Shown piece after piece: positions 5,252 to 64,000 of a stretch of DNA of 64,000 bases. Position numbers and translations under genes: made by a program. The notes beneath the pieces are model-generated. The model saw only the letters and a program-made list of their open reading frames with translations. It was not told the origin of the DNA and made no database searches. This stretch comes from Macrostomum lignano (taxonomy: Eukaryota). The stretch is taken from assembly GCA_002269645.1 (NCBI GenBank), contig NIVC01002565.1, positions 62,001 through 126,000 of the forward strand, in the 5' to 3' direction. How positions within the stretch are numbered: position 1 is the first letter of the stretch; each line of letters opens with the position of its first letter.

Positions 5252-7190
5252 GACTTACTTGACTTAGCTGCAGGGGTTCCACATCCGGATGCAGCGAGGA
5301 GGCGTTGCCGCCCATGTCGCTAACCCCTGACGACCACGGGCAGCCAGTTCTGCGGTGTCGCGCAGGGAGATCCGATGGTGCCGGTGTCCGCAGCGCGGTC
5401 TCCCTCTGGAGAGTCCAGGAGGTGGATGGTCGTTCGCCCGGTAGCTCTTAGGTAGCGGACGAGCTGTCAGAGATTCTCATGCCTAAAAAGTCGGAGAGGT
5501 CCGGGTTTGGGCCGAGGTAAGTGAGCCTGTTCTAATTAAAGGCGGGGCATTCACAGATGAAATGCTCCGCAGTCTCGACACCGGTCGGAGAGGCAGAATG
5601 GGCATTCCTCACTACGGTTTTTTACCGGGAGGTAACGATGCCTGACAAAACAGCCATGACCCAAGAGGGCCATGGTCACCGCCCTGATGTCCCTGCGGTT
5701 GAGTCCAAGCAGGGCCCTGCGCAGGGCGAAGGAAGGACAGGGGACAGCCTCGCGGGATTGTCGGCAGTCGGGGGCGTTAGCCCACCTTTCCCTCTGCTTT
5801 GAAGCCACCCACTGGTTGATCCGAGTGGTGACAACGGCGGTAGTGGTGGGGGCACGGGCAGGGGACCAGTAGAAGAACCGGTCGAGCCAGTCTTGGCCAG
5901 GCGATCGGCCAACTCGTTGCTGGGGTAGCCCGAGTGCCCGGGGATCCACCTTAGGGACACCTTGTTGGAGGCGCCTAAGCGGTTAAGCTGCGCGATGCAG
6001 TCGAGGACTGTACGCGAGCAGGTGGAGGTGCGCTTAAGGGCGTGGATCGCCGCTTGACTGTGCGAGTGGAGGGTAATCGCCTTCCCCAGACGCGCTGATG
6101 TACGGCTCCATGGCGCAGAAGCTGATGGCGAGAACTTCGTTTTGGAAAACAGTGGAGCAGGTGCCTGCTAGGAAGTCACCACGGTTCTCCCTCCAGACAC
6201 GATGCAGTATCCGTAGCCAGAGGTGGAGTTGATTTGGAACCCGTCAGTGAAGCAGTGGATTTCACGGGGTTTCCAGTTGTCCCTTGCCTCATGACGTGGT
6301 GGAATGCTGGTTTTGAATTCAAGCGGATGGCAGAGCGTAGACGGGATTCCGTCCGAGAGGGTCAGCAGGCCTTCCGCTGCTTCCAGGTCTCGCAGGCTGC
6401 GGTCGCAGAAGTTTTACTTTCTGAAAGCGAACTGCTTCTGGATGAGGACACCCGCGTCAAGCAGACGCGGGAGTTCATTGCCTCCCCTCCAACAAATAGG
6501 TCAAGGGGAAGGTCCAGGAAGAAGTTCATGCCAAGCAAAGGGTGAGAGGGAGTCGCGCTCATGATGGCTCGACGAGTGCGGCCTTGCACCTTGTTAGGAG
6601 CTTCAAGAACCCCTTTCACCTCTAGGCACTGTTCCAGATGAAGCCGGCAAAGTCTCACGATGGCAGTGTAAATCCACGGCGGGGGTGAGGCCCCAGGTAG
6701 CGCCGAAAGCTCTGCGGATCTGCGTGAGAGTCGCGAGAGCTTTGCAGGCTTTGGTTTGGACGTGTGGCGTGACGCCCAGACATCTGGTTTGTTTCTCCAT
6801 GGCAACGGGTTTGCGGTTCAATTCTCCAGTTTCGGCTGCTGATAAAAATTATAGCCACGGTTTTAGACTCAGAGAACCTGAGACCGCGGCTGTGTGCCCA
6901 GCGCTCGGCACGGTGGATGAAGGCTTGGAGGAGGTCTCTGAGGACCGCGGGTGATGGTCCAGCCCAGGGACTACTCCCTGGAGTAGTCCCTGGTCCAGCC
7001 ACAGTAGCCGCCGACATTTTAAACCGGGTCCGGATACGGGCTGCAGAGCAGCTCGTCCATGACAAGTTCCAGGGGATCTTGTGAACGTCGTCATCAATTA
7101 CCAATAATCTATTGGAGATGGAGACAGACGAACGGCTGATATCGCAGAAGTTCTATCGCCTGTCCGTCAGCGTCTCGGCGCAAAATAAAT
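5252..7190 (-). mobile_element. 5'-truncated, degenerate LOA-like non-LTR retrotransposon (RT C-terminus, RNase H, CCHC, 3' UTR)
   Basis: Fragmented ORFs homologous to ORF2 of 28631-34514: [45 protein letters not shown]...CPFC. Same 3' tail GCAGCTAAGTCAAG. Confidence 0.88.
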
Positions 7191-7512: not shown

Positions 7513-7584
7513 GGGGGTGTAGCTCAGAGGTAGAGCGTTCGCTTTGCATGTGAAAAGTCCCGGGTTCGAACCCCGGCTCCTCCA
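7513..7584 (+). tRNA. tRNA-Ala (anticodon TGC)
   Basis: GGGGGTGTAGCTCAGAGGTAGAGCGTTCGCTTTGCATGTGAAAAGTCCCGGGTTCGAACCCCGGCTCCTCCA. Cloverleaf with A/B boxes, the G3:U70 Ala identity pair, and a T-run terminator just downstream. One U-U mismatch in the acceptor stem. Confidence 0.9.
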
Positions 7585-9781
7585 CCGATAACTTTTTGTC
7601 CTGTTCCATGGAATTTTACTTATCATCTACTTACACAGAAAAAATTGAAATTAGTTGTCTCTGATTTTTATCTAATTTTTACTTGATATTTCTAAAAAAT
7701 GACACCATAGAAAGTTCCACACCTGCTATGTAATTTTGAATGCCACTATTAGGATATATACCTATATGTATCGAAAAGGCTGTATGACGCAAAATAAAGA
7801 AAAACCTAATTTAAATATTGCGCAATATGTATTAACTAAACATGATAGTTAAACATTAAAAAAATAATATTGGCTTTGCTCCAAAACTTTATCCGTGTTA
7901 AAAAATAATTTTCAATTACTATGCCTTCAGTCGCTCTCTGATAAATTGATTTTCCGAAAAACAATTAAACTAACTCATCAGAATCAGAATCACTATAATA
8001 AAACGAGCATTGATACATAGCAATTGCATAAAGGCCCATGGCCCGCACATTATTCTATGGCTGTGCCGCTGTTGCTCATTATTATTGCCTATTAATAGGA
8101 TTCACTTAGGCCTAGGCCATATCTCGGCTAGCCAATTCAGCAACTAATTCCTCGCCCCTCTTGGTTGGGAATTTTGGAGCAGACCCAAGGCCAAGGCGAG
8201 ACCGAGACGAGATTTTAAGTTAGCCTTTGGACATTATTTTATCTTAACCTGGCTAGTCCTTAATTCCATTCTATTCTATAGATTTTTTAAACCTAGGCCT
8301 AGCATAAGAACGTGCATCAGGCATTGGGCCTAAGCCCTAACCTAAGTAAATGACCTAGGCCTATTTGTATTTGTGGACCAGCTTAGGCCTAGAATTTATA
8401 GTTAGATTTGCAAATAGAAACTTACTATTTTTGTATACATTTTTCAGAATCAAATTAAATGCATTTTGACATTACCCTCTGAGAATTTTTTTGCCAGGTT
8501 GCTAGAAAATTGTTTGTGATCTATTGAGTTATCATTGGCAAAGTGTTACAAATATACACCATGCATTTTACTAGCAAATTGCTTGCTAGCATCAATAGGC
8601 CCCAGCTTGCAACAATTGCTAGAATTTTGCTAGGCCCTTACATATTTGCTACAGTATAGGCCTAATTTTTCTTTGTAATATTGTTTATATATAGAAATTT
8701 GTATTGTATGATTTATAGGATTAAGTACCTCAGTTGTCTATAGCATTAAATGATAAAAACCTAATTAATTAGAGGGCCTAATATAAAAATTAAGAATTAG
8801 GCCCTAATATATATACTTTGTATTATCACTTATGTTAGACATTTGTTATTAATTAATTATAAAAAATCTTTTAATTATACTGTCTTAACCCTAAAAACTA
8901 AACTAAAGATTACTTAATTTTAAATTTTAATTGTTATCACTAGGCTATATTAATCGTTTAATAAAGTTTAAGCCTCTATTTCTATCCCAAAAGTTGATAA
9001 AAGTAATAGGGCTATTAGTTCAATCTTACTAATACTAGGCCCTACTAAACTAGGGGCCTAATCATCAAAGTTATAAAGCCTTGTATTCCTTTTTTAATAT
9101 CATTGCTATTGCTATATGAGTACTTATATTATTTGGCCTTAATCATTGAACTTTAAGTTTAGGCGCTAGAATTAGGCCTAGTCTAAGCATATAGGTTTAA
9201 TATTAGGCATATAGGTTTAATATTAGGCATATAGGTCTAATGTTAGGCCCTAGTCATATTGAAGTCTATATATGAATATAAATATATGTTTGAGTATATA
9301 TTTAAATAATTTACTTTTTATTAGGCTAGTACTATTTTTATTCTATACTAATAATATTCAATTTTGTTCTATACTAGTAGCATTCTTATAAAGGCTTGAG
9401 CAATAGAGGTTAAATAGGATTAAAGTCATTAGGCAGGATTAGGAATGCCTAAATATGCTGCTATCCTACTACTTCATTCTTAGAAAATTGATTAAATCTA
9501 AATATAATTCTCAAAAATTTATTAAAGCACTAATTCAATAAATCAGAGCATACTTTTTTATTAATTGATAAATTCACTTTTAAGTCAAAAGAGTTGCAAG
9601 GATTAGAAAATAGTGCTTTTTCCTAGGTGTCTTTATTCTGCCTATTACTGTTTCTTAATCAAAATTATATGTATCAACCCCAAAGTAAAACTGCTCTAAT
9701 AGTGCCACCAATGAGCTAATTGCCATAGATGAGTATGCTGCAAGAATGCCAATTGGGATAGTTATTCATAATTGCTTTTTG

Positions 9782-10643
9782 TGATGTGTTCCTTATTACC
9801 CGACTTTCGATAATCAAGGAACAATCACTTCTAGCTCAACAGCTAGGCAACCCAGTAAGTCAAACGAAGGTATTCAATTACCTTTAATCCGGATTTGAAT
9901 TTCTTGAGTAGTTCTCGCTAGGAACTTGTCAGTAGATCTCGTAGATCAGGCGCCTTGATTCTTCAGTTGCTCTGGTCCTGGTTCCTCTTGTACTTCCGAT
10001 AAGTTCTTCCGGCCGGTATCTTCCGTCAGGACCAATCAGAGGCCTCGTAGCAACAATGGGTACCCTGCGCCAAACTGCGGTCTAAATTAAGCCTCCTTCT
10101 TCTAGCAGTGCCTCTATGCACTCTAGGTATAGCTCCGGAAACCACTGATAGTCCTCTAAGATCTATCAGGGGCAGTCCTTCTGGAGACTGCAACCAATGG
10201 AGTCTAAACAGACTCAAGAGTCTCAACAGACTCAATTAGACTCAAGTCTCAATAGACTTGAGCGAGACGTCTCTAACACAACGGGCGCAAATAAGGAAGG
10301 CTTACCGCAACAACTCGACCGAGTCTCGATTGACTTGGTAGATCAGGAAGTCCTCCTAAGGCTTCCTCTTCGGAGCGCTCCTCTTCCGTGGGGAGAATGG
10401 CTCCGGTACCGCTTCAGATCGCTTGTATTTATAGACAAGTTTTTGATCCAAAATAGTATCATGACAATTCACGTGTTGCGCTAAAAGGGGAAAATGGCTC
10501 ATGGCGTATTATTCTGGTAACATCTTTTTCTGGTAGCGTGATTCATTCAAAGCTTAGGCGCACATGCGTGTACTTACTTACTTATAGTAGTATTATACGA
10601 TTATCTTTTTTTTCTGTTTTTGCGGGAGGCAGAACACTCTACA
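9782..10643 (-). repeat. 3' LTR (862 bp)
   Basis: Direct repeat of 19539-20400 at a constant offset of 9757. No differences seen by eye, and the ORF-track translations inside both LTRs are identical. Confidence 0.97.
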
Positions 10644-10646
10644 AAA

Positions 10647-10658
10647 TCTCCCTTTTTT
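10647..10658 (-). promoter_or_regulatory. Polypurine tract
   Basis: AAAAAAGGGAGA on the minus strand, 3 nt before the 3' LTR. Confidence 0.85.
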
Positions 10659-10773
10659 ACGAAAAAAAACTCGTCCCGAGTTTTAACAATGAAATAATAA
10701 AATTCTGTGGTGATCAGTTAATATAGGAAATAAACAATTGATTTTGTGCGCGTCTAGAGAAGCGAGGGTTTGG

Positions 10774-11207
10774 TCAAAACTCTAAAAACTTTTCAGTACA
10801 TATTGCGGTCAAAACTCGAATATCGCGTAGACATCGAGTGGCATCAGGTTTGATACGACACCACTTTCGAAACGTGCAGTCTCGCGGCATACTATTACAT
10901 AAGGGGCATCCTATAATGCCCCTACTAGCGGTTTGCTTCAAACAGTGCATGCAAATAAAATGTTGGTGGTTACAATATTGAAACGTGCGCCAAGAATAAC
11001 AATAGGCACATTGTCGCAAACTATCTCTACAGAGGGGACAATCTGCCAGGGCTGAATATAGTGTGAATCACTTAAACATTGTCCGCAAACTTTATGTCCA
11101 TTGATGCAAATAGTCGGTGGCTTGACAGCCAAGTCATCAGTTAAACATATCGGGCAGTCATATAGCTGCTGAGGCTGGGGCGCCTGTTTTGACAGTGCGT
11201 TGCCCAT
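10774..11207 (-). CDS. Accessory ORF of the LTR element: N-myristoylated tandem RING (2 x C3HC4) protein, ~144 aa after restoring one base near 11065
   Basis: Joins ORF-track 10938..11219 and 10774..11019. It starts MGNALSK, followed by CPIC-x12-C-x3-H-x2-C-x2-C-[frameshift]-CPLC and then CAYC-x8-C-x3-H-x2-C-x2-C-x11-CPLC. Confidence 0.75.
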
Positions 11208-11327
11208 AATTGTCGTCAATTTGTCGCTGTCTTTGTGTCGCTCGGATTAGTCGCCTTTTACGACAAGCTTGCGAAGCTGTAGTGCTATTCTTTATCCCGG
11301 TCACTACACGGGGTTGTTCTCTAAACT

Positions 11328-11640
11328 CTAGCGTGGTCGTAGGTTGTAGCCATGTGGCTGGCTCACATCTGTCGTTTGAGTCTCCTCGTGCTTCGTCGCG
11401 ATGTGGCGGTTCGTTGAACGCGTGCGATCAGCGTTGTCTAATGTCGGTAGAAACGTCGCGTGTCAGTGTTGATCTTCTTTAGTCGATGAATGTGTACGTA
11501 GAACTGGTGCTGATGTGGATCTTGTACATTAGCCAGGCGTGCCGTTGTTGGTGACGTTAGTTGGACCACTCGATAGGGTCCTTTATACTTCTGTGCATGT
11601 TTATGCGTCTGCTGTGGCGGGTAGTGTAGGTAACGATGTC
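11328..11640 (-). CDS. Frameshifted integrase C-terminal tail (GPY module and YNLRPR end)
   Basis: Alternative frames read GDIV/YLHYPPQQTHKHAQKYKGPYRVVQL...VHIHRLKK and ...QPHGYNLRPR*, typical Gypsy integrase C-terminal motifs. Two single-base indels are required. Confidence 0.75.
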
Positions 11641-14600
11641 GCCGGCCGTCAGGGTTGTCGATCTCGCGTCGTTGCCGGTGGTCAGAGCCACCTGGTTGTC
11701 AATGTTGTGCTTGGCGATCTTCCATGCGAGGTGTAGTTGCGTGACGAATTTCTGAATGGAAGTCGGTACTTCCACGTACTGCGATGGTAGCAATTGCTGT
11801 GCGAGCAGATTCGGCGGTTGGAAGTCTCGTCCAAACATTAGGAAGAATGGCGTATTGTCCGTTGATCGATGAATAGCGCTGTTGTAGGCCATTGTTACAG
11901 ATTGCAGGTAGATGATCCAGTCTTCCGGCTGTTGGTGCGCGAAATGTGTAATCATCTCGTGCAGGTTGCGGTGAAACCGTTCAACCATGTTTGCCTTCGG
12001 ATTGTAGGTCGATGTGTAGATCTGCGTAATGTTGAGAATCCTTACGACTTGCTGAAACAGTTGCGATGTAAACTGCGATCCGTTGTCCGATGTGAGGTTC
12101 TTCGGCGTGCCGTACTTGCAAATGATTTCGTTGAAGAAACTCATTGCCACTGTCTGAGCTGTGATGTCCGGTATCGGTATGGCGATAGCAAACTTCGAGA
12201 AGATATCCAAGGCGGTTAGAATGTAGGTGTAGGCGATGCCCTGGAGACAGCTCGGTGGTAGCGGTCCGGTGATGTCGATGCTTAGACAGTCCATTGTAGT
12301 CGACTTCGGAATGGACTGTAGCTGCGGTTTCTGTCGTCGTCCTGTCTTTGATGCAGCACATGAATGGCAGTTGTTGCAATACTGCTTGATGTCGCCGTAC
12401 ATAGTTGGCCAAAAGTAGTATTGTTCCACTCTCGCGATGGTCTTTGCTGCCGACAGGTGTCCAGCGAGTGGGTTGTCGTGTAGCTCGTTGAGAATTGCTT
12501 GCCGAAACGAATATGGTATGTAGATCTTGGGTTTATTGTCGCTCATCCAGTAGAGCCGTGACTTATTGATTGTTAGGTGTTGTCGTTGCTTGCGTAGGAA
12601 TTTTCGTTCCATGGGACTGAGTTTGATGTTCTTGTCGTCGTCTTTAACCGCTTGGTAGAAGTTGTCGCGCTCGGTTTCATCCACCAACTCCTTGATGTTA
12701 GGGATTGGATGAATGGCGTTGACTTCATAGGCTCTTGACAGGGCGTCCGCGGCTTTGTTGGTAATTCCTGGTTTGTAGACGAGTTTGTAGTTGTAATCCT
12801 GGATCTTGAGTGTCATTCTGATGAGTCGGTTGTTGGTCTGTCCTTTTGTAGTTACGACGTAGGTCAATGGTGCATGATCCGTGCGTACTATCGTCTGTAT
12901 TGGAGAACCATAGATGTAGTAATGAAACTGTCGCAGGGCGAACAAGACTCCTAGTAGCTCTCGTTCCGTAGCTGACCACTTTGTTTCATTTGGTTTGAGT
13001 GCTCGACTGACGTAGGCAATAGGTCGTTCCTTCTTGTCCTCGGTTTCCTGTAGTAGGACTGCTCCGAGTCCCGTTCCTGAGGCGTCTGTCTCGATGATGA
13101 AGGGCTTGTCGAAGTCCGGATGCTGTAGCAGTGCGTCTGATGTCAGCTGTCGTTTGATTTCGTCGAAACTTTCCTGTTGTCTCTGTGTCCAGTTGTCTTG
13201 CTTCCATTTGTCGAACTTGAGCAGGTCGTACAGTGGCTTTGCTGTCTTTGCGAAGTTAGGTAAGAACTTCCTGAAGTATTGCGCAAGTCCAAGGAATGAT
13301 TGGACCTTCGTTATACTGGTTGGCGTAGGAAACTTCTTCACCTTTTCCACGTTGTCTGGGTCCGGTGAGATTCCTTTGGCTGTCACCTGATGTCCCAGGT
13401 AACGCACGTTGTCTCGGAAGAATTTGCATTTAGTTGGTTGTAGCTTCAGACCTTGGCGTTGAATGAGCGCTAGGGCCTTCTCCGTAGCTTCGTAGAGTCG
13501 CTCGAAATCCTCTCCGTAGGCTAAAATGTCGTCGACATAGTGCAGCAGGTTCGTGCATCCTGCTAGCATGTATGCTGTTAGTCGACTCATCGTTGCTGGG
13601 CTGTTGCTAAGTCCCATCGGCGATCGATTGTACTCGTATACTTGTCCATTGTAGGTTTTGAAAGCCGTGTACTGTCGTGACTCTTTCTCGATTTCAATTT
13701 GCCAAAATCCATGACGTAGGTCGAACACCGTGAACAATTTTGCCGTGTTGAGCTTTGCTAGTAGTTCGGAGATCTTCGGTAGGCTTTGCTGATCCGTCGG
13801 TATGTACTTGTTCAACAGTCTGAAGTCGCATACGAGTCGTCTTTCGTTTGTCTCCTTCTTCTGTACCAGTAGGCACGGTGAGGAGTAAGCCGAAATAGCT
13901 TTGCTGATGATGCCGTGCTTTAGCATTTTATCGATGATTTCGTCAAAGTGTTGTTGCAGATGCTTGGCGATCGGGTACGGCTTGCACTGAATTGGTTCCG
14001 TGTGCGGCAGAAGTTTGATTTCCTGTTTGATGTCCTTGGCTCGTCCGATGTCGTAATCATGATGGCAGAAGGCTTCGTTGTACTTCCACAACAGCTGTCG
14101 AACTTTCCTCTTTTGCTGTTCCGTAATCGGGCTGTCATCCAAATTGATCTTCTTTTGAAATTCTTCCTCTGTTAGTCGTGGAGTCGCTTGTTCAATCAGC
14201 ATAACCGATGCTTGGGTGTTGAGATGACCGATGCACATTCCTTGTCGTAGATGAACCGTTTCTGTGTTCGGGTTGAAGATTTGTACTGGCAGTTGCTTAT
14301 CCTTTGCAACCAGCACTAGTGCCGTAGGCATCATGATTTGATGTTTTGCCGTGACTCTCCTGTGTGGATCAAATATCATTGCTTCATCTGCCGCGCTGGT
14401 CGTTTTCGCTCTGACCCAGCATGCGCTTTCAGGCTGGATAATGACATCTTGCTGCAGAGTTACTTTCGGTAGTACTCGAATCTGGTTGATCAGCGGTTGC
14501 TCCACCGTGTCGATCCTAAACGTTTGCTTGTTGAAGTCGAAGGTCAATGGTAGTTGAAGCTGCTTGAACGTGTCGATTCCAACGATGACGTCTTGGTTTG

Positions 14601-17600
14601 GTAGTCTGTCGATGATGTACGTCGGGACCGTCAGCTGTTTATTAGCAATTTTCAAGTCGATATCTGCTTTTCCTAGGATGTTGAGTGAATGTCCTCCTGC
14701 TCCTGCAACTGCGATTGCTGCTGGTCGTACCGCGAGTCGTAGCTTGTTGCATAATTGTTGCGAGATGACTGTGATCGAGCTGCCTGAATCCAGTAGTGCT
14801 CGACATGGCAAGTTGTTGACAATGACCTGAGCCATTGCTTTGCCAATCTCGGCGTGTAGCGTACAGACGTAGTTTTCCGGCCATTTTGGCTCGTGCTGTT
14901 CTGCTTGATAGTTGGGTGGTTGTATCCTTGGTGCCGTTGGTGTTGTCGGAATCGATGGATATAGCCGCGTTGCTAGTGTCGGTTGCCCTTGAACCTCACA
15001 ATGTGCAGTTTCTGTTAGTTCTAAACTGTTGTCGCTTTCCGTTGTCGTTCTTTGCATTATGGCATTCACTGTCTTCTTAGCTCTTGGACAAGTTTGACTG
15101 AAGCACCGTACGATCGATGAAATGATGAAGATTGCCGTGACAATCCACACAATGCAAGCACCGTAGAAGATGAATCCTTGATAGAGACTGCCTCTTCCAT
15201 TGAGCAGCTCCCAGAAGCTATTTGTCCAAAATGATTTGATGGCGCTGTCCATTGAAACAAGGACGGGAAATCTTCCTGTCCCGGTTCCTTTGTCCTTTCT
15301 TGTGAACAGCTGGTGAATCATCTTGCGTTGGGTGATGAACGCTTGCAAGAAGTCGTTGATCGTCCATCCTGGTGTTATCTCGTCAAGTTGGATATCGGCG
15401 AATGGCGTATACTTCGTTCTGTTGAATCGGATTTTCAAATCCTCCATGTCGTAGTTTTCGTCGACGATTACTTCCGGTTCTGTGACGTTTGCTGTCGTTC
15501 CAGTTGTTTTGATGACGTGTAGTGCATTGTCCAGTTGATAGTAGTTTACTGCCGTGGTGCAAGGTCTCGGTATTGCGGTGCCAACGATGATGTTGTGTAC
15601 CGTGTCCAAGAATCCCTGAATTCGTTTTCCTTCGTAGAACGCTTCAATCCTTGGCTTATCGTAGCAGGTTGTTGACGTGTTTGACGGCAAGATGTTAAAG
15701 TGCTGTATCGGCGTGCACTTGTATATCAACAGATGCTCGTATATTGGAACTGCCAAAACGTTCGTCATTCCGGTGATTTTACGAAAAGTCATCGTAGGGT
15801 TGACATAGTAGTTTTGTCTGGCATAATTTAAGTTGATTGCGTGCATTTTGCAAGTTAGCTGGACCAGTGTTCGATGCAAGTGGTTTAACTGGTTGTGTAG
15901 ATTGTGATCCAAAGCCGTTATCTTTGCTGACAACAGCCGGTTTGACACCAGTTTGGGACGTTCGATGTCACGTCGTCTTCTATTCTGTTTTTCTTGTTGC
16001 TGATACGTTCCATTGATGATTGCCAAGAAGGTTTGTTTGTCTTCATCCTTTACGTAGACTGGTATCTCTTGTTCCGAGATGAATAGTGTCTTGTCTGTAT
16101 CCTTGCATTTCAGTTTTTGCTCGACTGGTTTCTTTTGAAACGTCAGTGCCAAGTCTCCTGACTTTGCCAAAAACGTATTTGACAGTAGTCCTCCTTCAAC
16201 TGTGTGATACTTTTGAAGCTTGCAGTCAATTTCCGGCTCAACTTCCCACGCGAAGAAGTATTGTCGTGATTTGTACGGTTCCTCATAGTGTGATTGTGCT
16301 CTGTGCTCAATCTGCCATCGATAGTCTTGATGATATGTTGGACTCAGTGGTAGACTGTGTAGTTCTTCCTTCCGTAGAATCGGCGTTGGACACCATCCTT
16401 CACTGTATCGACATTCGCTTAGTTGCAGCTGTAACGATTCCATTTTCTCGTACGGATTGTAGTAGAATGGAATATTTCTGATCAAGTAGCTGTTGCGTGC
16501 CATATATTCTTTCCATTTTCCGAAGAAGTGAATATATCGACCGTTGGCTGAATTCTTTGTTCTGAACAGCTGTGCGTTGCCGACCTTCTCATCTGGTTCC
16601 AGTTCACCATCCTTTGAAAATAGTGTTTGATTCCATTGTAGGCATTCCGCGTGCGACACATGTAGCTCATGTTGTTTAAATCGGATCCGGTTCCATTGTC
16701 CGCGCCAAACTTTTTCCACCAGGTGCTTGTCTCTGAAGCATACTATCCCGTGTTGTCGATGCTTCTTGATGTTAGCCTTGTAGAGATCGAGTGTAATCTT
16801 CTTTGGTTTTGTCTGGTTTGTCTTGAAGTAACTGCATTTGATGTCGGTTGGTATCTTGTAGATCATCGGTTGGATATGCGCATCCGTTGGACAAATCATT
16901 GGCTTTTCCGTTGCCGTTGCTTTGGCGACTACTGCTATCAGTAGTATCACGATGATCCAGAATAGCCAGTTTTTCCACTTCTTGGATTTTGCCGTTGTCC
17001 TTGCTGGCATTGGCTGCGATCGCCATTCGTTATCTTCCATGTCCGCATCATATTCTTTCGGTTGTTCCATTGGCTGATCCAGGCGGAAGGCTTCTGATTC
17101 GCTTTGCTTTTTGGTTATTTCATTATCTTCGTCTGCGGCTTCTTCCGATGTTTCCGTTGTTTCACTCCATTGCGTTTGGTATCTTTTCTCTGTCTTGTAG
17201 TCGACCGTTTGAATATAGGCTTCACCATTTCGTTTGTATCGGATCTCGTAGCATTCGTCGCTGTCGGAACTCGGCTTTTCTTTCACCTGTTCTTTTTCCA
17301 TTTCTTCATCTTTCCATTGTATTTCGTAGCCTTGATCGCTGTCGGAACTTAGATTCTCCGCTCTCGGTTCTTCCTGCATTCCTCTTTCGGCTTGGTAGTC
17401 GTTCGTGTCATCACGCACCTCGCAGTCGTGGTCGTTGCCGTAACTTCTACATTCTTCTTCTTCTTTCATTTCTTTGTCTTTCATGCTCGTTTTGTCGTCA
17501 TCCACTGTTGTCGATTCATAGTTGTTTTCTTCGCCGGTTTTCATCTTTTCTTCGTTGCCGATGTCGCTCTCCGCCTCCTCCCTTGTCTTGTGATTTACTT

Positions 17601-18822
17601 TCTTCCTGTTTTCTCTGCTGTCTCCGGTGGTCTCTTTTAATTTGATCATTTCGGTTTCATTCGTCTCTTCTGTGTTGTCAGTGTTGTCCTCGTGCGTCGT
17701 CTTCTTTTCGATCAAGCTGATGTCAAGTTCCGGGACTGTGAAGTCCATTTCCAAGTCGTCAATTGTGAACACTTGCTGTTCTTGCTGTTCATTTTCCGGT
17801 GTGTACGTGATGGCATTCGCGTATCGTGGCATTGCTTGCGTCGGCTGTCTTTGTGTGTATCTGACGTTGCGTGGCCTGTAGCCATTACTTCTGAAGCGGC
17901 CTTCGTTTCCGAAGCGGCCATCATTTCCGGAGCGGTCATTATTTCCGAAGCGTCTATCATTTCCGAAGCGTCTCATTCCTTGTTGTTGGCGATTTTGATA
18001 GTGCTGCCATGGTTTCTGCGGCTTCTGATTGTTGAATATCTGTCGCGGCTTGTCGTATCTTGTTGACCAATGAGGACAATTAATCTGATAATGTCCTTCT
18101 TGTCCGCAGTAGTAACATCTGGCTGAGGCTTGTTCATTTCGTCTTTTTTGTTCGGCGATAGCAGCTGTCTGGTGCTGCATTAACTTGTTTAGTTGCTGCG
18201 TCAGTTTCTGCACTTCATTGTTGCCTGTCGTCATTAATGGGGCACTGGCTTCCCATTGCATTCCGCAACGCAAAAGGTCTTCTTCGGTTTCGATATTTTC
18301 ACGCAAAAGTCTATCCCGAAGTGACGGCTGTGCGTTGTTTATTACGTGCAGGATGAGGTTTTGTTCACGATCCATCAATCGTTGTCTTTCTCTGGCGGCC
18401 AATTCTGCCGCTCCCAGTGGTGGTTGGTCCGCAGCTTGCAGCGGTGGCTGATGCAGTGCCTTAATTATCTGGCGGATATCGTCCACAAAGGCGAGGAAGG
18501 ATTCTGTTGCTTGCATCCTTCTGTTATGCAACTTGTGCAGCAGCACTGATCTGTTTGTGCCGCAACGGTTGAAATGCGCGCGCAGTTGAATGATTAGTGC
18601 TGGATAATTTTGCTGTGTTGCCGCATCCAGCTTGCCGTAAATTTCTCGCGCAGTACCTTGGAGAAGAGGTGGCAGCAGCTGTGCCTTCTCTGGATTTTGT
18701 AGGTTGTATTCCCTACATACCAGGTCAAAATGGTCGACAAATGTGTTAAAATCTTTCTCCATCGAGAAAGTACCGACCGTTTCTTTGATGTCTCTGTGTA
18801 CCGTTGGATTGCGCCGCGCCAT
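11557..18822 (-). CDS. Gag-Env-Pol polyprotein, 2421 aa (capsid, CCHC nucleocapsid, acidic linker, gB-like envelope glycoprotein, aspartic protease, RT, RNase H, integrase)
   Basis: CCHC CYYCGQEGHYQINC (~18075-18116). Signal WLFWIIVILLIAVVAKA (~16920-16975), furin RRRR (~15970-15982), TM (~15110-15180). Protease LLDSGS (~14780-14800), RT YVDD (~13530-13540), RNase H IIETDASG (~13078-13101). Integrase HHCC (12355-12483) and DDE (SIDITGP, SDNGSQF, VERFHR). Confidence 0.97.
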   Translation of the reverse strand: MARRNPTVHRDIKETVGTFSMEKDFNTFVDHFDLVCREYNLQNPEKAQLLPPLLQGTAREIYGKLDAATQQNYPALIIQLRAHFNRCGTNRSVLLHKLHNRRMQATESFLAFVDDIRQIIKALHQPPLQAADQPPLGAAELAARERQRLMDREQNLILHVINNAQPSLRDRLLRENIETEEDLLRCGMQWEASAPLMTTGNNEVQKLTQQLNKLMQHQTAAIAEQKRRNEQASARCYYCGQEGHYQINCPHWSTRYDKPRQIFNNQKPQKPWQHYQNRQQQGMRRFGNDRRFGNNDRSGNDGRFGNEGRFRSNGYRPRNVRYTQRQPTQAMPRYANAITYTPENEQQEQQVFTIDDLEMDFTVPELDISLIEKKTTHEDNTDNTEETNETEMIKLKETTGDSRENRKKVNHKTREEAESDIGNEEKMKTGEENNYESTTVDDDKTSMKDKEMKEEEECRSYGNDHDCEVRDDTNDYQAERGMQEEPRAENLSSDSDQGYEIQWKDEEMEKEQVKEKPSSDSDECYEIRYKRNGEAYIQTVDYKTEKRYQTQWSETTETSEEAADEDNEITKKQSESEAFRLDQPMEQPKEYDADMEDNEWRSQPMPARTTAKSKKWKNWLFWIIVILLIAVVAKATATEKPMICPTDAHIQPMIYKIPTDIKCSYFKTNQTKPKKITLDLYKANIKKHRQHGIVCFRDKHLVEKVWRGQWNRIRFKQHELHVSHAECLQWNQTLFSKDGELEPDEKVGNAQLFRTKNSANGRYIHFFGKWKEYMARNSYLIRNIPFYYNPYEKMESLQLQLSECRYSEGWCPTPILRKEELHSLPLSPTYHQDYRWQIEHRAQSHYEEPYKSRQYFFAWEVEPEIDCKLQKYHTVEGGLLSNTFLAKSGDLALTFQKKPVEQKLKCKDTDKTLFISEQEIPVYVKDEDKQTFLAIINGTYQQQEKQNRRRRDIERPKLVSNRLLSAKITALDHNLHNQLNHLHRTLVQLTCKMHAINLNYARQNYYVNPTMTFRKITGMTNVLAVPIYEHLLIYKCTPIQHFNILPSNTSTTCYDKPRIEAFYEGKRIQGFLDTVHNIIVGTAIPRPCTTAVNYYQLDNALHVIKTTGTTANVTEPEVIVDENYDMEDLKIRFNRTKYTPFADIQLDEITPGWTINDFLQAFITQRKMIHQLFTRKDKGTGTGRFPVLVSMDSAIKSFWTNSFWELLNGRGSLYQGFIFYGACIVWIVTAIFIISSIVRCFSQTCPRAKKTVNAIMQRTTTESDNSLELTETAHCEVQGQPTLATRLYPSIPTTPTAPRIQPPNYQAEQHEPKWPENYVCTLHAEIGKAMAQVIVNNLPCRALLDSGSSITVISQQLCNKLRLAVRPAAIAVAGAGGHSLNILGKADIDLKIANKQLTVPTYIIDRLPNQDVIVGIDTFKQLQLPLTFDFNKQTFRIDTVEQPLINQIRVLPKVTLQQDVIIQPESACWVRAKTTSAADEAMIFDPHRRVTAKHQIMMPTALVLVAKDKQLPVQIFNPNTETVHLRQGMCIGHLNTQASVMLIEQATPRLTEEEFQKKINLDDSPITEQQKRKVRQLLWKYNEAFCHHDYDIGRAKDIKQEIKLLPHTEPIQCKPYPIAKHLQQHFDEIIDKMLKHGIISKAISAYSSPCLLVQKKETNERRLVCDFRLLNKYIPTDQQSLPKISELLAKLNTAKLFTVFDLRHGFWQIEIEKESRQYTAFKTYNGQVYEYNRSPMGLSNSPATMSRLTAYMLAGCTNLLHYVDDILAYGEDFERLYEATEKALALIQRQGLKLQPTKCKFFRDNVRYLGHQVTAKGISPDPDNVEKVKKFPTPTSITKVQSFLGLAQYFRKFLPNFAKTAKPLYDLLKFDKWKQDNWTQRQQESFDEIKRQLTSDALLQHPDFDKPFIIETDASGTGLGAVLLQETEDKKERPIAYVSRALKPNETKWSATERELLGVLFALRQFHYYIYGSPIQTIVRTDHAPLTYVVTTKGQTNNRLIRMTLKIQDYNYKLVYKPGITNKAADALSRAYEVNAIHPIPNIKELVDETERDNFYQAVKDDDKNIKLSPMERKFLRKQRQHLTINKSRLYWMSDNKPKIYIPYSFRQAILNELHDNPLAGHLSAAKTIARVEQYYFWPTMYGDIKQYCNNCHSCAASKTGRRQKPQLQSIPKSTTMDCLSIDITGPLPPSCLQGIAYTYILTALDIFSKFAIAIPIPDITAQTVAMSFFNEIICKYGTPKNLTSDNGSQFTSQLFQQVVRILNITQIYTSTYNPKANMVERFHRNLHEMITHFAHQQPEDWIIYLQSVTMAYNSAIHRSTDNTPFFLMFGRDFQPPNLLAQQLLPSQYVEVPTSIQKFVTQLHLAWKIAKHNIDNQVALTTGNDARSTTLTAGDIVTYTTRHSRRINMHRSIKDPIEWSN
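15060..16980 (-). other. Envelope glycoprotein domain (class III, herpesvirus gB-like) embedded in the polyprotein
   Basis: Signal peptide, Cys-rich ectodomain with six N-X-S/T sequons, furin site and C-terminal TM. The motif series C...NP...C.P...CY..P...GFL...PCT...YY parallels HSV gB domains III-IV. Confidence 0.85.
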
Positions 18823-19518
18823 GTTGTTGATAGGGTAGAACGGTAGTTCAAGATCTGGATCGATTTGTAACGGATCGTCCAGTGTGGTGTTTGCCTCGGA
18901 ATAAACCTCGACTGTAACGAATTGCCTTGTGGTGTCGATTTGTTATTCGCTGGCCTCGGATGCGGTGTGGCTTGCTGCCACTGGTTGTCCTCAAATGAAC
19001 TTGTTCTGTTCGCTTGCTGATTTCGCACTTATGCGGCGTCCCGCAAAGTGTATCTTCAAGTTGAAGTGGACTTGTCTTCTTGCTTTGCAAAGTCTTTCTT
19101 CTCTTCTTTGACTCTCTCTCTTTTGTCAATTAACTCTGCTCTCCACGAAGTTTCAATTAATTTCGGTTTTGTTTTAGTTTTTGTGCCGGCAAAATGTTTC
19201 AGTTATTTTTTGTTTGTTTTGCGTCGACGATTCTTTTTATTTTTGGTTTGTTTTCAGTGTACCGACGAAGTTAATTTCGGTTTTGTTTTAAACTCACACT
19301 TGCTCGAGCTCGTCAAAACAAAATTTTAACACGCGTGCTCAAACTGTACTCAAATTTGACAGGTGCTCAAACCTGTACACCAAATTTTACTCGAGTTTCA
19401 AAACGTAACGGACTTAAAAAGTGTTAACTCTAACACGTGCGCGCAAAATTAATGAAGTCGCTCTGTCGTCACTTTACAATAGCTTGGCCAGGCTATTGCT
19501 CAAGGTTTGAGTAGTGCC

Positions 19519-19536
19519 GAGAGGGCGAGATCACCA
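19519..19536 (-). promoter_or_regulatory. Primer binding site
   Basis: TGGTGATCTCGCCCTCTC begins 2 nt after the 5' LTR. TGG is complementary to tRNA CCA. The primer tRNA was not identified. Confidence 0.8.
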
Positions 19537-19538
19537 AT

Positions 19539-30685: not shown

Positions 30686-33600
30686 ATGAATAAGCTCCAC
30701 GCTGCCAAAGGAGCGACATTCTGTCTGCAAATTAATTTACAGCATTGCGTATCTGCGTCAGTAAATCTGATGAAGATTGCTGAGCTGTACAGGCCAGGCC
30801 TCATCCTGATCCAGGAACCCTGGATGCGCAACGGTAAGTTGCCCAACATTCCCTCTGGCTACTCTGATTTTTATGTGTGTGGCCCGGGGAACAGCCGCCC
30901 TAGAGCGGCTATCCTCGCTGCTAGCCATCTCCAGGCTTGGCTGAGGACTGATCTCTCTGATGGAGACCTTTGCGTCATCCAATCTAATCATTTCTCTCCG
31001 CGTACGTGTCTTGTTGCCTCGGTTTATATCCCAGGCGACAGAGACCCTGCTCCTGAGAGTTTACTGCGCCTCGCGCAGTACTGCGAGTCCCAGAACGCTG
31101 AGCTGTGCTTAGGGGGCGACCTCAACGCGCACCACAAGCACTGGGGCAGCAAAGATACCAACACTAGAGGAGAGGAGCTTTTGGCCCTCATCTCTAACAC
31201 AAACCTCATGCTCTGCAACCGCGGCAGCACTCCTACCTTTAATAATGGCAGATGGACCGAGGTCCTCGACGCCACACTCGTTACCCCAAGACTCTTTGAC
31301 AGAGTTGAGGAGTGGAGAGTCTGGTCTGAGGAGCCCTCCCTGTCTGACCACTGCTTTATCGCCTTTAACATCGCGGACACTAAAACCCAGTCTCCGATCA
31401 CTTGGAGACGCAATATCCGCAACACTGATTGGGCGGCCTACAAGGCTGCCCTTGATCTGCACCTGCAGGAACTCACGGACTTACGTCCGATTGAGACCTG
31501 CGAGGATGTGGATCATATGGCTGAGACGCTGACAGGTTGCATTATTGAAGCCTACGAAGCGGCTTGTCCTGCTCGCGCCTACAAAGGCAAGACCTCGGCG
31601 CCGTGGTGGAACCCGGAGCTGGGGAAACTCAGGCGGAAGGCCAAAAGCCTTCATCGCCGTGCCATGAAGACCGGAAACCCGGAGGACATGGAGCTTTTCC
31701 GGCAAGCCTCCCGCAATTTCAAATCTGAAGTGCGCAAGGCCAAGGAATGTAAGTGGCGCCAATTCTGCAATGAATTGGATCAAGACAGACCTACTTCTAG
31801 GCTTGTCAAGGCCCTTACAATGGACAAAATGTCCAAATTAGCCATGATCAAAAAAGATGATGGCTCTCTTACTAAAGACCCTGAAGAAGTGCTTCAGCAT
31901 ATGCTTAGCACATTCTTCCCGAGGGTACCTACTGCTAGACCGGAGCCCAACCATTCGATGGATGGAGCCACCCTAGCGGCGGGCATTGTCACTGAAGACC
32001 TAATCGCTCGTGCGGTCAGAACCTTCAAACCCTTCAAATCTCCTGGACCTGATGGTATCTACCCTGTTCTCCTTCGTGAAGCAGCCAAGATACCCTCGTT
32101 CCTGAGACTCACCGCAATCTTATGCGGGCCTCTATCCAGCTGGGATACGTTCCCAAATGCTGGACTGAAGCTCGGTAGTCTTTATTCCCAAACCTGGGAA
32201 GGGTGACTACCAAAGCGTCAAGGCCTTCCGGCCTATTAGCTTAACGTCAGCAATGCTTAAGCTCACTGAGAGGCTTATTCTCTGGCGGCTGCTGTCCTGC
32301 GAGCTGACAGCGATGCCCCTCAGCAATAATCAGCACGCCTTCCGTACCGGGAGGTCGACTGACAGCGCCCTGCATGCGATTGTCGAGAAGATTGAAAGGG
32401 CGGTACTGGGTGACGGTTACGCTCTGGCTCTCTTTCTTGACATTGTTGGCGCCTTCGACAACGTTATCTTTGAAGCGTTTCAGAGGGCCCTTCAAAATCG
32501 CAAAGCTCATGCTACCCTCATACGGTGGATCATGTACATGATCTCCAACCGTACGGTCACTGCCCAACTTCTTGGGCAAACTGCCTCCACCAGAGTCTGT
32601 AAGGGTGGACCCCAAGGCGGAGTCCTCACCCCGACGCTCTGGAACCTGGTCATGGACGCTCTTTTGAGTGACTCCCGACCCGACCCCGTATTCAAAGTCG
32701 GGTATGCTGATGACGTCACGGCCATTGTGGCAGGACCGTCTCCCAGCACGCTCAGGGATCTGATGCAGAGCTTTATCCGCAAAGCAGAATCCTGGGCCAA
32801 TGACAATGGTCTGGAACTCTCTGAGCCCAAAACCGTTGCCATTATGTTTACCAGCAGACTACGCTGGAACATACGTCCTCTGCAGCTCTACGGCAGAGAT
32901 ATTGCCTTCGCGCACCAGACCAGATGTCTCGGGGTCATACTTGACCACCGGCTCAACTGGTCCTCCACGTGAAAGCAAAAGCCAAGCGTGCCTCAGCCAT
33001 CCTGGCCCAGCTCCGACGAGCACTTGGCACTTCTTGGGGTCTATCCCCAAAGCGGCTTTGGTGGATCTATACTTCCGTAGTTAGACCTGCCATTACGTAC
33101 GCCTCTGTTGTCTGGGTTAGCGCTACCCAGGTCAAAAGCCATGCAGACCTGCTCAACACGATCCAAGGCAGAGCGTGTAGGCTCATCTGCAACGCCACCA
33201 GGTCCACGCCCTTTGCTGGCATGGGGGCCTTCCTTAATCTTCCGCCTCTTGACCTCTTCATCAGGGTGAGGCGGCTAGAACGACGCGGCGTCTAATTGAT
33301 GCCGGCGTCAAATTCATTTACATGAGAGCACCTGCTAAGCGGAACCTTGTCCCGCATAGCGATCTGTGCCTCAACTTTCTCAACGAGTGTCAGGCCAATC
33401 GCGTCTTCACCGATGGCATTGCCTCAACGCTCAACCTGAGACAGCGCTACTCCGTAGCTATCGACTCGCGCGATAACATCAATGACCAATGGAACCCTGG
33501 TGAGCTTCATTGCTACACCGACGGTTCTAAGCAGTCAGCCAACACCGGCTTTGGTGTTGGAATCTTTCTGAACGGGAGGGTCATCGCTACCCACGCTCAA

Positions 33601-34422
33601 TACACTGGGGTCAACTCCAGTGTTTTCCAAAATGAAGTTCTGGCCATCAGCTCCTGCACTGCAGAGCTTCTCGCCACTGGCGTTACTGGTAAGAACATCA
33701 TTTTCCATTCGGACAGCCAAGCTGCCTTGCACGCCATCAGTGGCTGCAGCACCAACTCTGCTACAGTCCTCGACTGTATCAAACTCCTCAACGTGTTGGG
33801 TTCCGCCAACAAAATTACCCTTAAGTGGGTTCCGGGGCATGTGGGGATCCGAGGAAATGAGTTGGCTGACACCCTTGCAAAAGTTGGTGCCTCCGGCTCC
33901 TCTCTCGGCCCCGAACCTCTTGTCCCGATTCCTGGCTGTGTCATCGACTCGCGCATCAAAGCGTGGATCAGGACTCAGCACCGCTCGACTTGGGCGAACC
34001 GCACGAACTGCAGGCAATCCAGAGGCGCTGTCCCTCAGCCCTCTCACCAGCTCCGGAAGCTCCTCTTGCGCCTCTCGCGCAGAGACATCCGGGCTGCCAC
34101 CATGACCCTCTCTGGTCACGGCTGCTTCTCCAGGCACCAGCACCTGCAGGGCAACGCCACCAACGCCACCTGCAGTTTCTGCAACTCAGGTGACGAAACC
34201 GCTGAGCATTTCGTCAGCATCTGTCCCGCCTTCACGCGGGCCAGACTCACTTACCTCGGGCCACACACATCTATTACTGAAGCGTGCAAACCCGAAAACT
34301 TTAATCAGCTCATGCGCTACCTTCGGGCCACCCGCAGGGCTGAACTCTCCTTTCCAGAGAGCACTATAGCTGCTGGCGACACTGGGGGACCTCCCTGGGC
34401 GGCGCCAACCCTCCGTCCATAG
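30686..34422 (+). CDS. ORF2 of the LOA-like element: APE endonuclease, reverse transcriptase, RNase H, CCHC (split by several 1-nt indels)
   Basis: ORF-track pieces 30686-32206, 32253-32972, 32969-33295 and 33322-34422 are consecutive domains of one protein. Confidence 0.92.

Positions 34423-36635: not shown

Positions 36636-64000
<27,365 letters not shown>

Follow-up and report, generated by a model that had tools for sequence, protein, structure and literature searches.

An LTR retrotransposon with env between gag and pol

We analyzed a 64,000-nucleotide stretch of the flatworm Macrostomum lignano genome (contig NIVC01002565.1, positions 62,001 to 126,000; hereafter, the window). Its minus strand carries a Ty3/gypsy long terminal repeat (LTR) retrotransposon whose env gene encodes a predicted fusion protein, Env, resembling glycoprotein B (gB). 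The longest open reading frame (ORF) of the window, 18942-11557 (-), runs for 2,461 codons without a stop and holds Env, there being no separate env ORF. Along this ORF the Pfam domains follow in the order zinc knuckle, Env, protease, reverse transcriptase (RT), RNase H (RH), and integrase (IN); therefore, env sits in frame between gag and pol. The two LTRs are 100% identical to each other over 862 bp. As listed in Table 1, the element has the LTRs, target-site duplication, primer-binding site (PBS), polypurine tract (PPT), and protease (PR)-RT-RH-IN order of Ty3/gypsy elements, together with a gB-type env between gag and pol, and none of its 13 Pfam matches was to a BEL/Pao-specific family. 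The element is a member of the known GAG-ENV-POL group of Ty3/gypsy elements. With a probability of roughly 0.85, the Env region codes for a class III, gB-type envelope fusion protein belonging to a young M. lignano element of this group, most likely a copy of Mlig_errantivirus_2.

ORF residues 1051-2437 are identical at 1379 of 1387 positions to UniRef A0A0M4HFM6, an M. lignano retrovirus-related polyprotein. The match ends at residue 2437, where a frameshift near 11630 (-), either real or an assembly error, disrupts the C-terminal part of integrase in this copy despite the identical LTRs. To examine conservation, 73 relatives of Env were collected at E ≤ 0.001 from a 50%-identity library; they are predicted proteins, mostly 22-30% identical to Env, many partial and some perhaps spliced gene models. 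A word-indexed homolog search returned one relative with the single sequence and two with a profile. In the closest relative, the acidic linker between Gag and Env is far more variable than its flanks.

Env itself has the layout of a membrane glycoprotein, with a signal segment, an ectodomain, a C-terminal anchor, and positive-inside charges; both membrane segments were called from hydropathy alone. The hydrophobic core of the first segment was present in 43 of the 45 relatives examined, with a net basic charge ahead of it in 34 of 43. An earlier note on this DNA had described Env as a herpesvirus gB-like class III fusogen with recognizable fusion loops, and the peptides that it quoted all lie where it placed them, in one minus-strand frame. 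With the base composition found here, a run of 637 codons free of stops has a chance of ~1e-14. Furthermore, all 12 ectodomain cysteines are conserved, each in at least 55/56 to 59/59 covering rows of relatives (this and the aromatic and furin counts below were taken from an alignment of the query with 71 of the 73 relatives, P0003 and P0004 being excluded).

Sequence evidence for a relationship to gB

When the single Env sequence was searched against PDB with phmmer, no gB was found, and the five matches returned were unrelated (E 0.48-0.78). The best Pfam family was PF24664, Monjiviricetes_fusion (E about 1e-5; 24.2-24.5 bits against a 27-bit cutoff), which covered the central region only; at the level of sequence, this near miss shows relationship, not membership. 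PF00606 (Glycoprotein_B) gave no match at E ≤ 1, and by the Pfam test Env falls outside the herpesvirus gB family.

The family profile told more than the single sequence. An alignment of the ectodomain with 43 of the 73 relatives (those of ≤965 aa, the near-identical P0003 being excluded), termed A1 and comprising 44 sequences, was converted to a profile and searched against PDB with HMMER. This search matched 44 sequences at E ≤ 10, of which 43 were gB; 13 had E < 1e-3, and the best was Epstein-Barr virus (EBV) gB at 4.6e-15. The profile aligned EBV gB (domain independent E value [i-E] 1.2e-11) and varicella-zoster virus (VZV) gB (7.7e-12) across a block made up of the central helix, NP, C.P, CY..P, G.L, C, and an aromatic residue, the same block in which the earlier note had spotted a gB-like order of motifs. 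Because the family profile aligns to EBV and VZV gB across exactly that stretch, the motif order is, as judged from the alignment, beyond chance, and the observation stands. Among the A1 members, matches at E ≤ 0.01 were obtained to Monjiviricetes_fusion for 21/44 (best 3.8e-14) and to Glycoprotein_B for 3/44 (best 8.7e-5).

Predicted structure of the ectodomain

An AlphaFold2 model of the ectodomain was built from A1, with a predicted local distance difference test score (pLDDT) of 76.2 and a predicted template modeling score (pTM) of 0.51. The model has the class III layout of fusion and pleckstrin homology (PH)-like domains, a long central helix, and then a beta-rich crown domain. In a Foldseek search of PDB, every match listed was a herpesvirus gB (best E 3.9e-20). 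VIA, a structural search independent of Foldseek, was run against 48,161 chains, and its top six matches were gB, from Z 11.2 (herpes simplex virus 1 [HSV-1] gB; root mean square deviation [rmsd] 9.0, 409 aligned) to 7.7; pseudorabies virus gB domain IV scored Z 10.6 (rmsd 4.1, 163 aligned) and Chandipura G Z 7.0, with unrelated helical matches from Z 7.2 down. Structure prediction could have given a class I or II fusogen or a nonfusogen fold; instead, gB matched best in both searches. No class I or II fusogen was among the matches listed by Foldseek for the ectodomain and for domains I-II or by VIA for domains I-II. The only one in the VIA search with the ectodomain, a 57-residue helical-hairpin match to the Mason-Pfizer monkey virus TM core (class I), had Z 6.2 and was set aside as generic, lying among many unrelated helical proteins.

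Domains I and II were also folded alone, from the query and 34 of the 73 relatives, with pLDDT 86.9 and pTM 0.77. Their best match was HSV-1 gB residues 136-456 (Z 10.2, rmsd 7.2, 219 aligned), followed, among PH domains, by Chandipura G (Z 6.9), Bourbon (6.2), Thogoto (5.9), and GP64 (5.5). Since these two domains have no significant sequence match to gB, their structural match constitutes a second line of evidence. Rhabdovirus G, baculovirus GP64, and thogotovirus Gp thus resemble Env in their class III domains I-II (Z 4.9-6.9) but lie clearly below gB (Z 9.6-10.2), in the range of plain PH domains. A three-copy prediction of model residues 318-575, in which the alignment was unused and the fold uncertain, scored 0.12 and 0.11 against a mark of 0.32, a result that speaks neither for nor against a trimer.

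Among predicted viral structures (BFVD), the top two matches were RNA-virus G proteins (Nyavirus, E 3.8e-23, and then a rhabdo-like virus), below which entomopoxvirus proteins, gB, and nyami-, chu-, and xinmovirus glycoproteins were intermixed, gB first appearing at rank 5. Because nyamivirus and chuvirus-type G match as well or better in this library, Env as modeled has a gB-like fold and stands no nearer to herpesviruses than to the RNA viruses in question. The designation in the earlier note therefore holds for the gB-like fold, on which the profile, Foldseek, and VIA agree, and not for herpesviruses in particular; what the data point to is the branch of gB and mononegavirus-chuvirus G, and "herpesvirus-like" appears valid as a structural label for the fold only. 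On the models, Env most likely works like a class III fusogen.

The entomopoxvirus matches, W6JPK9, Q9YVZ3, A0A916KPE9, and Q9YW15, three of them uncharacterized, had E values of 5e-21 to 4e-14.

Candidate fusion loops and furin-type site

Both peptides proposed as fusion loops fall in loops of the predicted fusion domain. The secondary structure of both models (DSSP) places WRGQW at the tip of a beta-hairpin, whose strands (model residues 51-70 and 73-83) are joined by a two-residue turn at G-Q. A weak second profile block (i-E 0.91) is colinear with EBV gB over its N-terminal 100 positions and places the aromatic columns of the hairpin tip at the position of EBV loop 1, where EBV gB constructs carry the HSV-2 residues HR (PMC12859058). 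WRGQW is thus a candidate loop 1 by its place in the model and by this weak alignment. HFFGKW, the candidate loop 2, precedes strand 134-151, the third long strand of the fusion domain, and has its loop position and aromatic character in its favor; a residue-level alignment to gB loop 2 was not obtained.

An aromatic residue was found in the loop-1 window in 52/54 covering rows and in the loop-2 window, which includes insertions, in 50/51. In eight control turns, the corresponding counts were 8/54, 57/59, 8/59, 16/58, 30/57, 3/57, 43/51, and 3/9. Given the insertions in the loop-2 window and two controls that are equally high, the aromatic counts support the loops without proving them. The placement of a furin site before the long central helix was borne out by the model, with R-x-K/R-R at this site in 44 of 57 relatives. 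EBV gB is cleaved between domains II and III, the same junction as RRRR (PMC12859058).

Compared with herpesvirus gB (HSV-1 2GUM, EBV 3FVC, human cytomegalovirus 5CXF, and Kaposi's sarcoma-associated herpesvirus 9CU4), Env shares the domain order, the PH-like domains I and II, the long central helix, domain IV, the loop-1 position, and, as in EBV, the furin site between domains II and III. It differs in its 11-14% identity, shorter ectodomain, internal instead of N-terminal signal, and 12 cysteines versus the five disulfides of EBV gB (PMC12859058), and also in a tail that runs on into Pol, the lack of an encoded gH/gL, and an LTR retrotransposon as its host. The G proteins of nyamiviruses, chuviruses, xinmoviruses, and related viruses (PF24664) are likewise close to Env as its best Pfam family and top predicted viral structures, but differ in their 10-14% identity and in a Pfam score under the cutoff.

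Relationship to described elements and alternative explanations

GAG-ENV-POL elements with a gB-type Env have been described in Nematoda, Bryozoa, and Platyhelminthes, and this gene order is given for all flatworm elements (Chary and Hayashi, eLife 2026, PMC13524379); the same paper attributes the first report of this flipped order, in nematodes, to Sacco et al. 2022 (doi 10.1099/jgv.0.001739). Row 1445 of its supplementary file 1 lists Platyhelminthes_Rhabditophora_Mlig_errantivirus_2, with ENV_HSV, 16 copies, and LTRs of 863/864 bp (862 bp here). The host, the gB-type Env, the PBS 12-mer, and its 2-nt spacing are the same, and the span is 10,591 bp versus 10,619 bp here; the frameshift in the integrase C terminus distinguishes the present copy. 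The element very probably belongs to this family, an assignment made from PBS, sizes, host, and Env type. Short Env motifs had no match in the supplements searched, and the pairwise table covers six flatworm sequences, none of which is the M. lignano Env. Since both the gB-type Env in GAG-ENV-POL elements and a tabulated M. lignano family have been published (PMC13524379), the finding is not new; the class has been reported before, and so, probably, has this very family as Mlig_errantivirus_2. The copy described here is a well-preserved example of a stand-alone gB-like fusogen, which bears on class III triggering without partner proteins and on the sharing of class III fusogens among herpesviruses, negative-strand RNA viruses, and retroelements. 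Sacco and colleagues reportedly described gag, env, pro, and pol in one uninterrupted ORF, with a glycoprotein resembling that of the Nyamiviridae.

Several observations weigh against reading the region as the class III Env of an Mlig_errantivirus_2 copy. The Env sequence alone finds no gB and passes no Pfam cutoff; the ectodomain model has a pTM of just 0.51, with residues 482-575 mostly at pLDDT <60; and its whole-ectodomain TM-scores to gB in Foldseek are just 0.35-0.46, with rmsd of 17-36 Å. Taken by itself, the sequence alignment for loop 1 is weak (i-E 0.91), and two of the eight control turns (57/59 and 43/51) are about as aromatic as the loops. As for the element, the integrase C terminus is broken in this copy, the identity with Mlig_errantivirus_2 rests on PBS, sizes, and host, and the LTR offset is 9727 there versus 9757 here, a difference of 30 bp.

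Other origins and roles for Env were considered. Direct capture from a herpesvirus, which would make Env a true gB orthologue, is very improbable: all top PDB matches are herpesvirus gB and three A1 members match Pfam Glycoprotein_B, yet seven times as many (21/44 versus 3/44) match Monjiviricetes_fusion, RNA-virus G proteins top the viral structure library with gB from rank 5, identity to gB is 11-14%, and the cysteine count differs from that of EBV gB. Moreover, the PDB ranking may merely reflect which class III proteins have solved structures. Alternatively, Env could have kept the fold and lost its role in entry, acting as a membrane scaffold that joins Gag and Pol in an element that retrotransposes within the cell. 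Both membrane segments would be needed for the topology whatever Env does, and env-borne transmission is unproven for most such elements (PMC13524379); nonetheless, we regard this as improbable, as relatives at roughly 20-30% identity have kept the cysteines, the furin site, and the aromatic loops, none of which a mere spacer would need.

A further question is whether the single frame matters at all, as Gag, Env, and Pol could each have an RNA of their own, spliced or internally initiated. Record A0A0M4HFM6 starts inside Env, and strict 1:1:1 synthesis is unusual for retroelements, but both linkers are stop-free (260 codons, chance ~2e-6; 89 codons, ~1e-2) and Env and Pol are in frame in 24 of the 73 relatives, some of which may be spliced models. 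Separate RNAs with an incidental frame thus seem unlikely, though less so than a scaffold role.

Proposed polyprotein topology and candidate late-domain motifs of the Env tail

Pol lies behind Env within one predicted protein in the above-mentioned 24 relatives and ahead of it in 0/73; Gag features lie ahead of Env in 29/73, and Gag, Env, and Pol occur together in 14/73. With Env as a class III fusogen of a GAG-ENV-POL element, the genomic RNA would give rise to a single polyprotein of about 2,420 aa. Its first hydrophobic segment would send the ectodomain into the endoplasmic reticulum lumen, where a signal peptidase cut would leave Gag anchored in the membrane; the second would return the chain to the cytosol, so that Pol would hang on the Env tail until freed by the protease. 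Furin would cleave Env at the junction of domains II and III. Once on budded particles, the Env trimers may insert both loops into a target membrane and then adopt the hairpin form. Because no gH/gL-like partner is encoded, the trigger would probably be low pH. The element could in this way move between cells, e.g., from soma to germline or stem cells.

The Env tail contains LYPxI, PTAP, and PPxY clustered within 19 residues. Motifs of these types are late-domain motifs, which engage the endosomal sorting complex required for transport (ESCRT). PT/SAP and PPxY occurred together in 0.05% of 200,000 shuffles of the tail. Of the 39 relatives whose sequence extends past the Env end (P0003 excluded), 10 had a late-domain motif within 120 residues of that end, versus 1.2 expected, and 0/1,000 shuffles reached 10; on the same tails, reversed motifs were found in 1/39 and two scrambled sets in 0/39. 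No such excess was seen before Env (6/30, 3.4 expected, 103/1,000 shuffles) or in the ectodomain (5/72, 7.5 expected). Within the tails, neither PPxY alone (2/39, reached by 107/1,000 shuffles) nor YxxL/I/V/M/F (16/39 versus 14.2) was enriched. Against this lead, the test was picked after the motifs had been seen, and the relatives are not independent (pairwise Env identity among nine positives, 0.16-0.48). In addition, 29/39 have no such motif, and two of the positives fall immediately at the end of the anchor. In P0003, the closest relative, a 33-residue gap spans the tail segment. In the literature searched, no report was found of late-domain motifs being enriched behind the Env anchor; this enrichment offers a testable model for budding of a gag-env-pol polyprotein.

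A small extra ORF between pol and the PPT has a RING-like Cys/His pattern. Its Pfam RING matches were all below the cutoff (best E 1.9e-4), a homolog search with a piece of it gave no match, and its look-alikes in the atlas were small viral RING-like proteins, a result below the recognition mark. With its MGxxxS start, it is reminiscent of myristoylated RING matrix proteins such as arenavirus Z.

The element shares with described GAG-ENV-POL elements the gene order, the gB-type five-domain Env with fusion loops in domain I, and an ectodomain between two membrane segments (PMC13524379). The late-domain motifs of the Env tail and the RING-like ORF go unmentioned in the main text of that paper, in which the terms "late domain," "PTAP," "ESCRT," "polyprotein," and "RING" have 0 occurrences (PMC13524379), and the accessible part of the Cer1 CERV paper describes no RING protein (PMC10309623). 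We tentatively propose a double-spanning polyprotein, with Gag and Pol cytosolic and Env luminal, in which Gag might be anchored by the Env signal segment, Pol packaged via the Env tail, and ESCRT recruited by late domains of the tail rather than of Gag, possibly helped in budding by a myristoylated RING-like protein. env may have landed between the nucleocapsid and an old p6-like region. Such a mode of assembly was not described for retroelements in the literature searched; if true, a laboratory flatworm that carries a young, multicopy element would offer a gH/gL-free gB-type fusogen, making gB triggering and cell-to-cell spread of a retrotransposon testable.

Other features of the window

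Table 1. Features of the LTR element and its Env gene (positions within the window)
Feature	Position	Strand	Remarks
Whole LTR element	9782-20400	-	10,619 bp; Ty3/gypsy; order gag-env-pro-RT-RNaseH-IN
Target-site duplication	9778-9781 and 20401-20404		4 bp, TTTG
5' LTR	19539-20400	-	862 bp; TG...CA ends
PBS	19525-19536	-	12-mer, 2 nt inside 5' LTR
Gag core	18043-18822	-	From first ATG of ORF; Gag-like N terminus common to relatives
CCHC zinc knuckle, one, in Gag	18117-18076	-	Pfam zf-CCHC E 0.003, under curated cutoff
Acidic low-complexity linker, Gag to Env	17011-17790	-	260 aa, 81 D/E, 35 K/R, in frame
Env region	About 17010-15100	-	Between two hydrophobic segments
Putative internal signal/first membrane segment	16912-16965	-	Hydropathy 2.41; five basic residues ahead; signal-peptidase site placed by eye
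Env ectodomain	15178-16911	-	About 578 aa, 12 cysteines, 6 N-glycan sequons; class III gB-like predicted fold
Domains I and II (predicted fusion and PH-like domains)	16006-16824	-	Folded alone
KVWRGQW	16713-16693	-	Peptide of earlier note
Predicted fusion loop 1 (WRGQW)	16693-16707	-	Beta-hairpin tip, DSSP of both models
YIHFFGKW	16536-16513	-	Peptide of earlier note
Predicted fusion loop 2 (HFFGKW)	16513-16530	-	Loop before third long strand of fusion domain in model
Furin-type site RRRR	15970-15981	-	Peptide of earlier note; between domain II and central helix, ten residues before 47-residue helix
Central helix of domain III (predicted)	15802-15942	-	47 residues, model 324-370; aligns to gB central helix in profile
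QLTCK	15861-15847	-	Peptide of earlier note
YVNPT	15807-15793	-	Peptide of earlier note
KCTPI	15720-15706	-	Peptide of earlier note
TCYDKP	15669-15652	-	Peptide of earlier note
IQGFLD	15621-15604	-	Peptide of earlier note
RPCTT	15567-15553	-	Peptide of earlier note
VNYYQL	15549-15532	-	Peptide of earlier note
Putative Env transmembrane anchor	15121-15177	-	Hydropathy 2.43; then four basic residues
Tail/spacer, Env anchor to protease	14848-15120	-	LYPxI 14964-14950, PTAP 14940-14929, PPxY 14919-14908
Aspartic protease	14545-14835	-	Pfam Asp_protease_2 E 1.7e-9
RT	13384-13863	-	Pfam RVT_1 E 5.8e-28
RNase H	12793-13191	-	Pfam RT_RNaseH_2 E 6.1e-37
Integrase, zinc-binding and core domains in frame	11557-12519	-	Pfam Integrase_H2C2 E 2.1e-20, rve E 8.3e-14
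Small extra ORF	10777-11207	-	Between pol and PPT; starts MGxxxS (myristoylation type); RING-like Cys/His pattern; two pieces, break near 11055-11060
PPT	10647-10658	-	3 nt before 3' LTR; read from sequence
3' LTR	9782-10643	-	862 bp; TG...CA ends

Outside the element, an intronless LSM-domain gene at 20871-21266 (+) lies 470 bp from the 5' LTR (Pfam LSM E 5.5e-17), and exons of a MAGUK-type host gene with PDZ, SH3, and guanylate kinase domains occupy 23080-25565 (-). A non-LTR retrotransposon at about 29485-34422 (+) has endonuclease, RT, and RNase H in separate frames, and an inverted RNase H fragment is found at about 5500-6170. The window also holds an exon with an RIH (ryanodine/IP3 receptor) domain at 48226-48960 (+; E 1.3e-8), two tRNA-like genes (Ala, 7513-7586; Met, 52076-52150; both +), and numerous minisatellite arrays (period, 8-55 bp) at 24050-24490, 36640-37300, 46970-47900, and 52800-64000.

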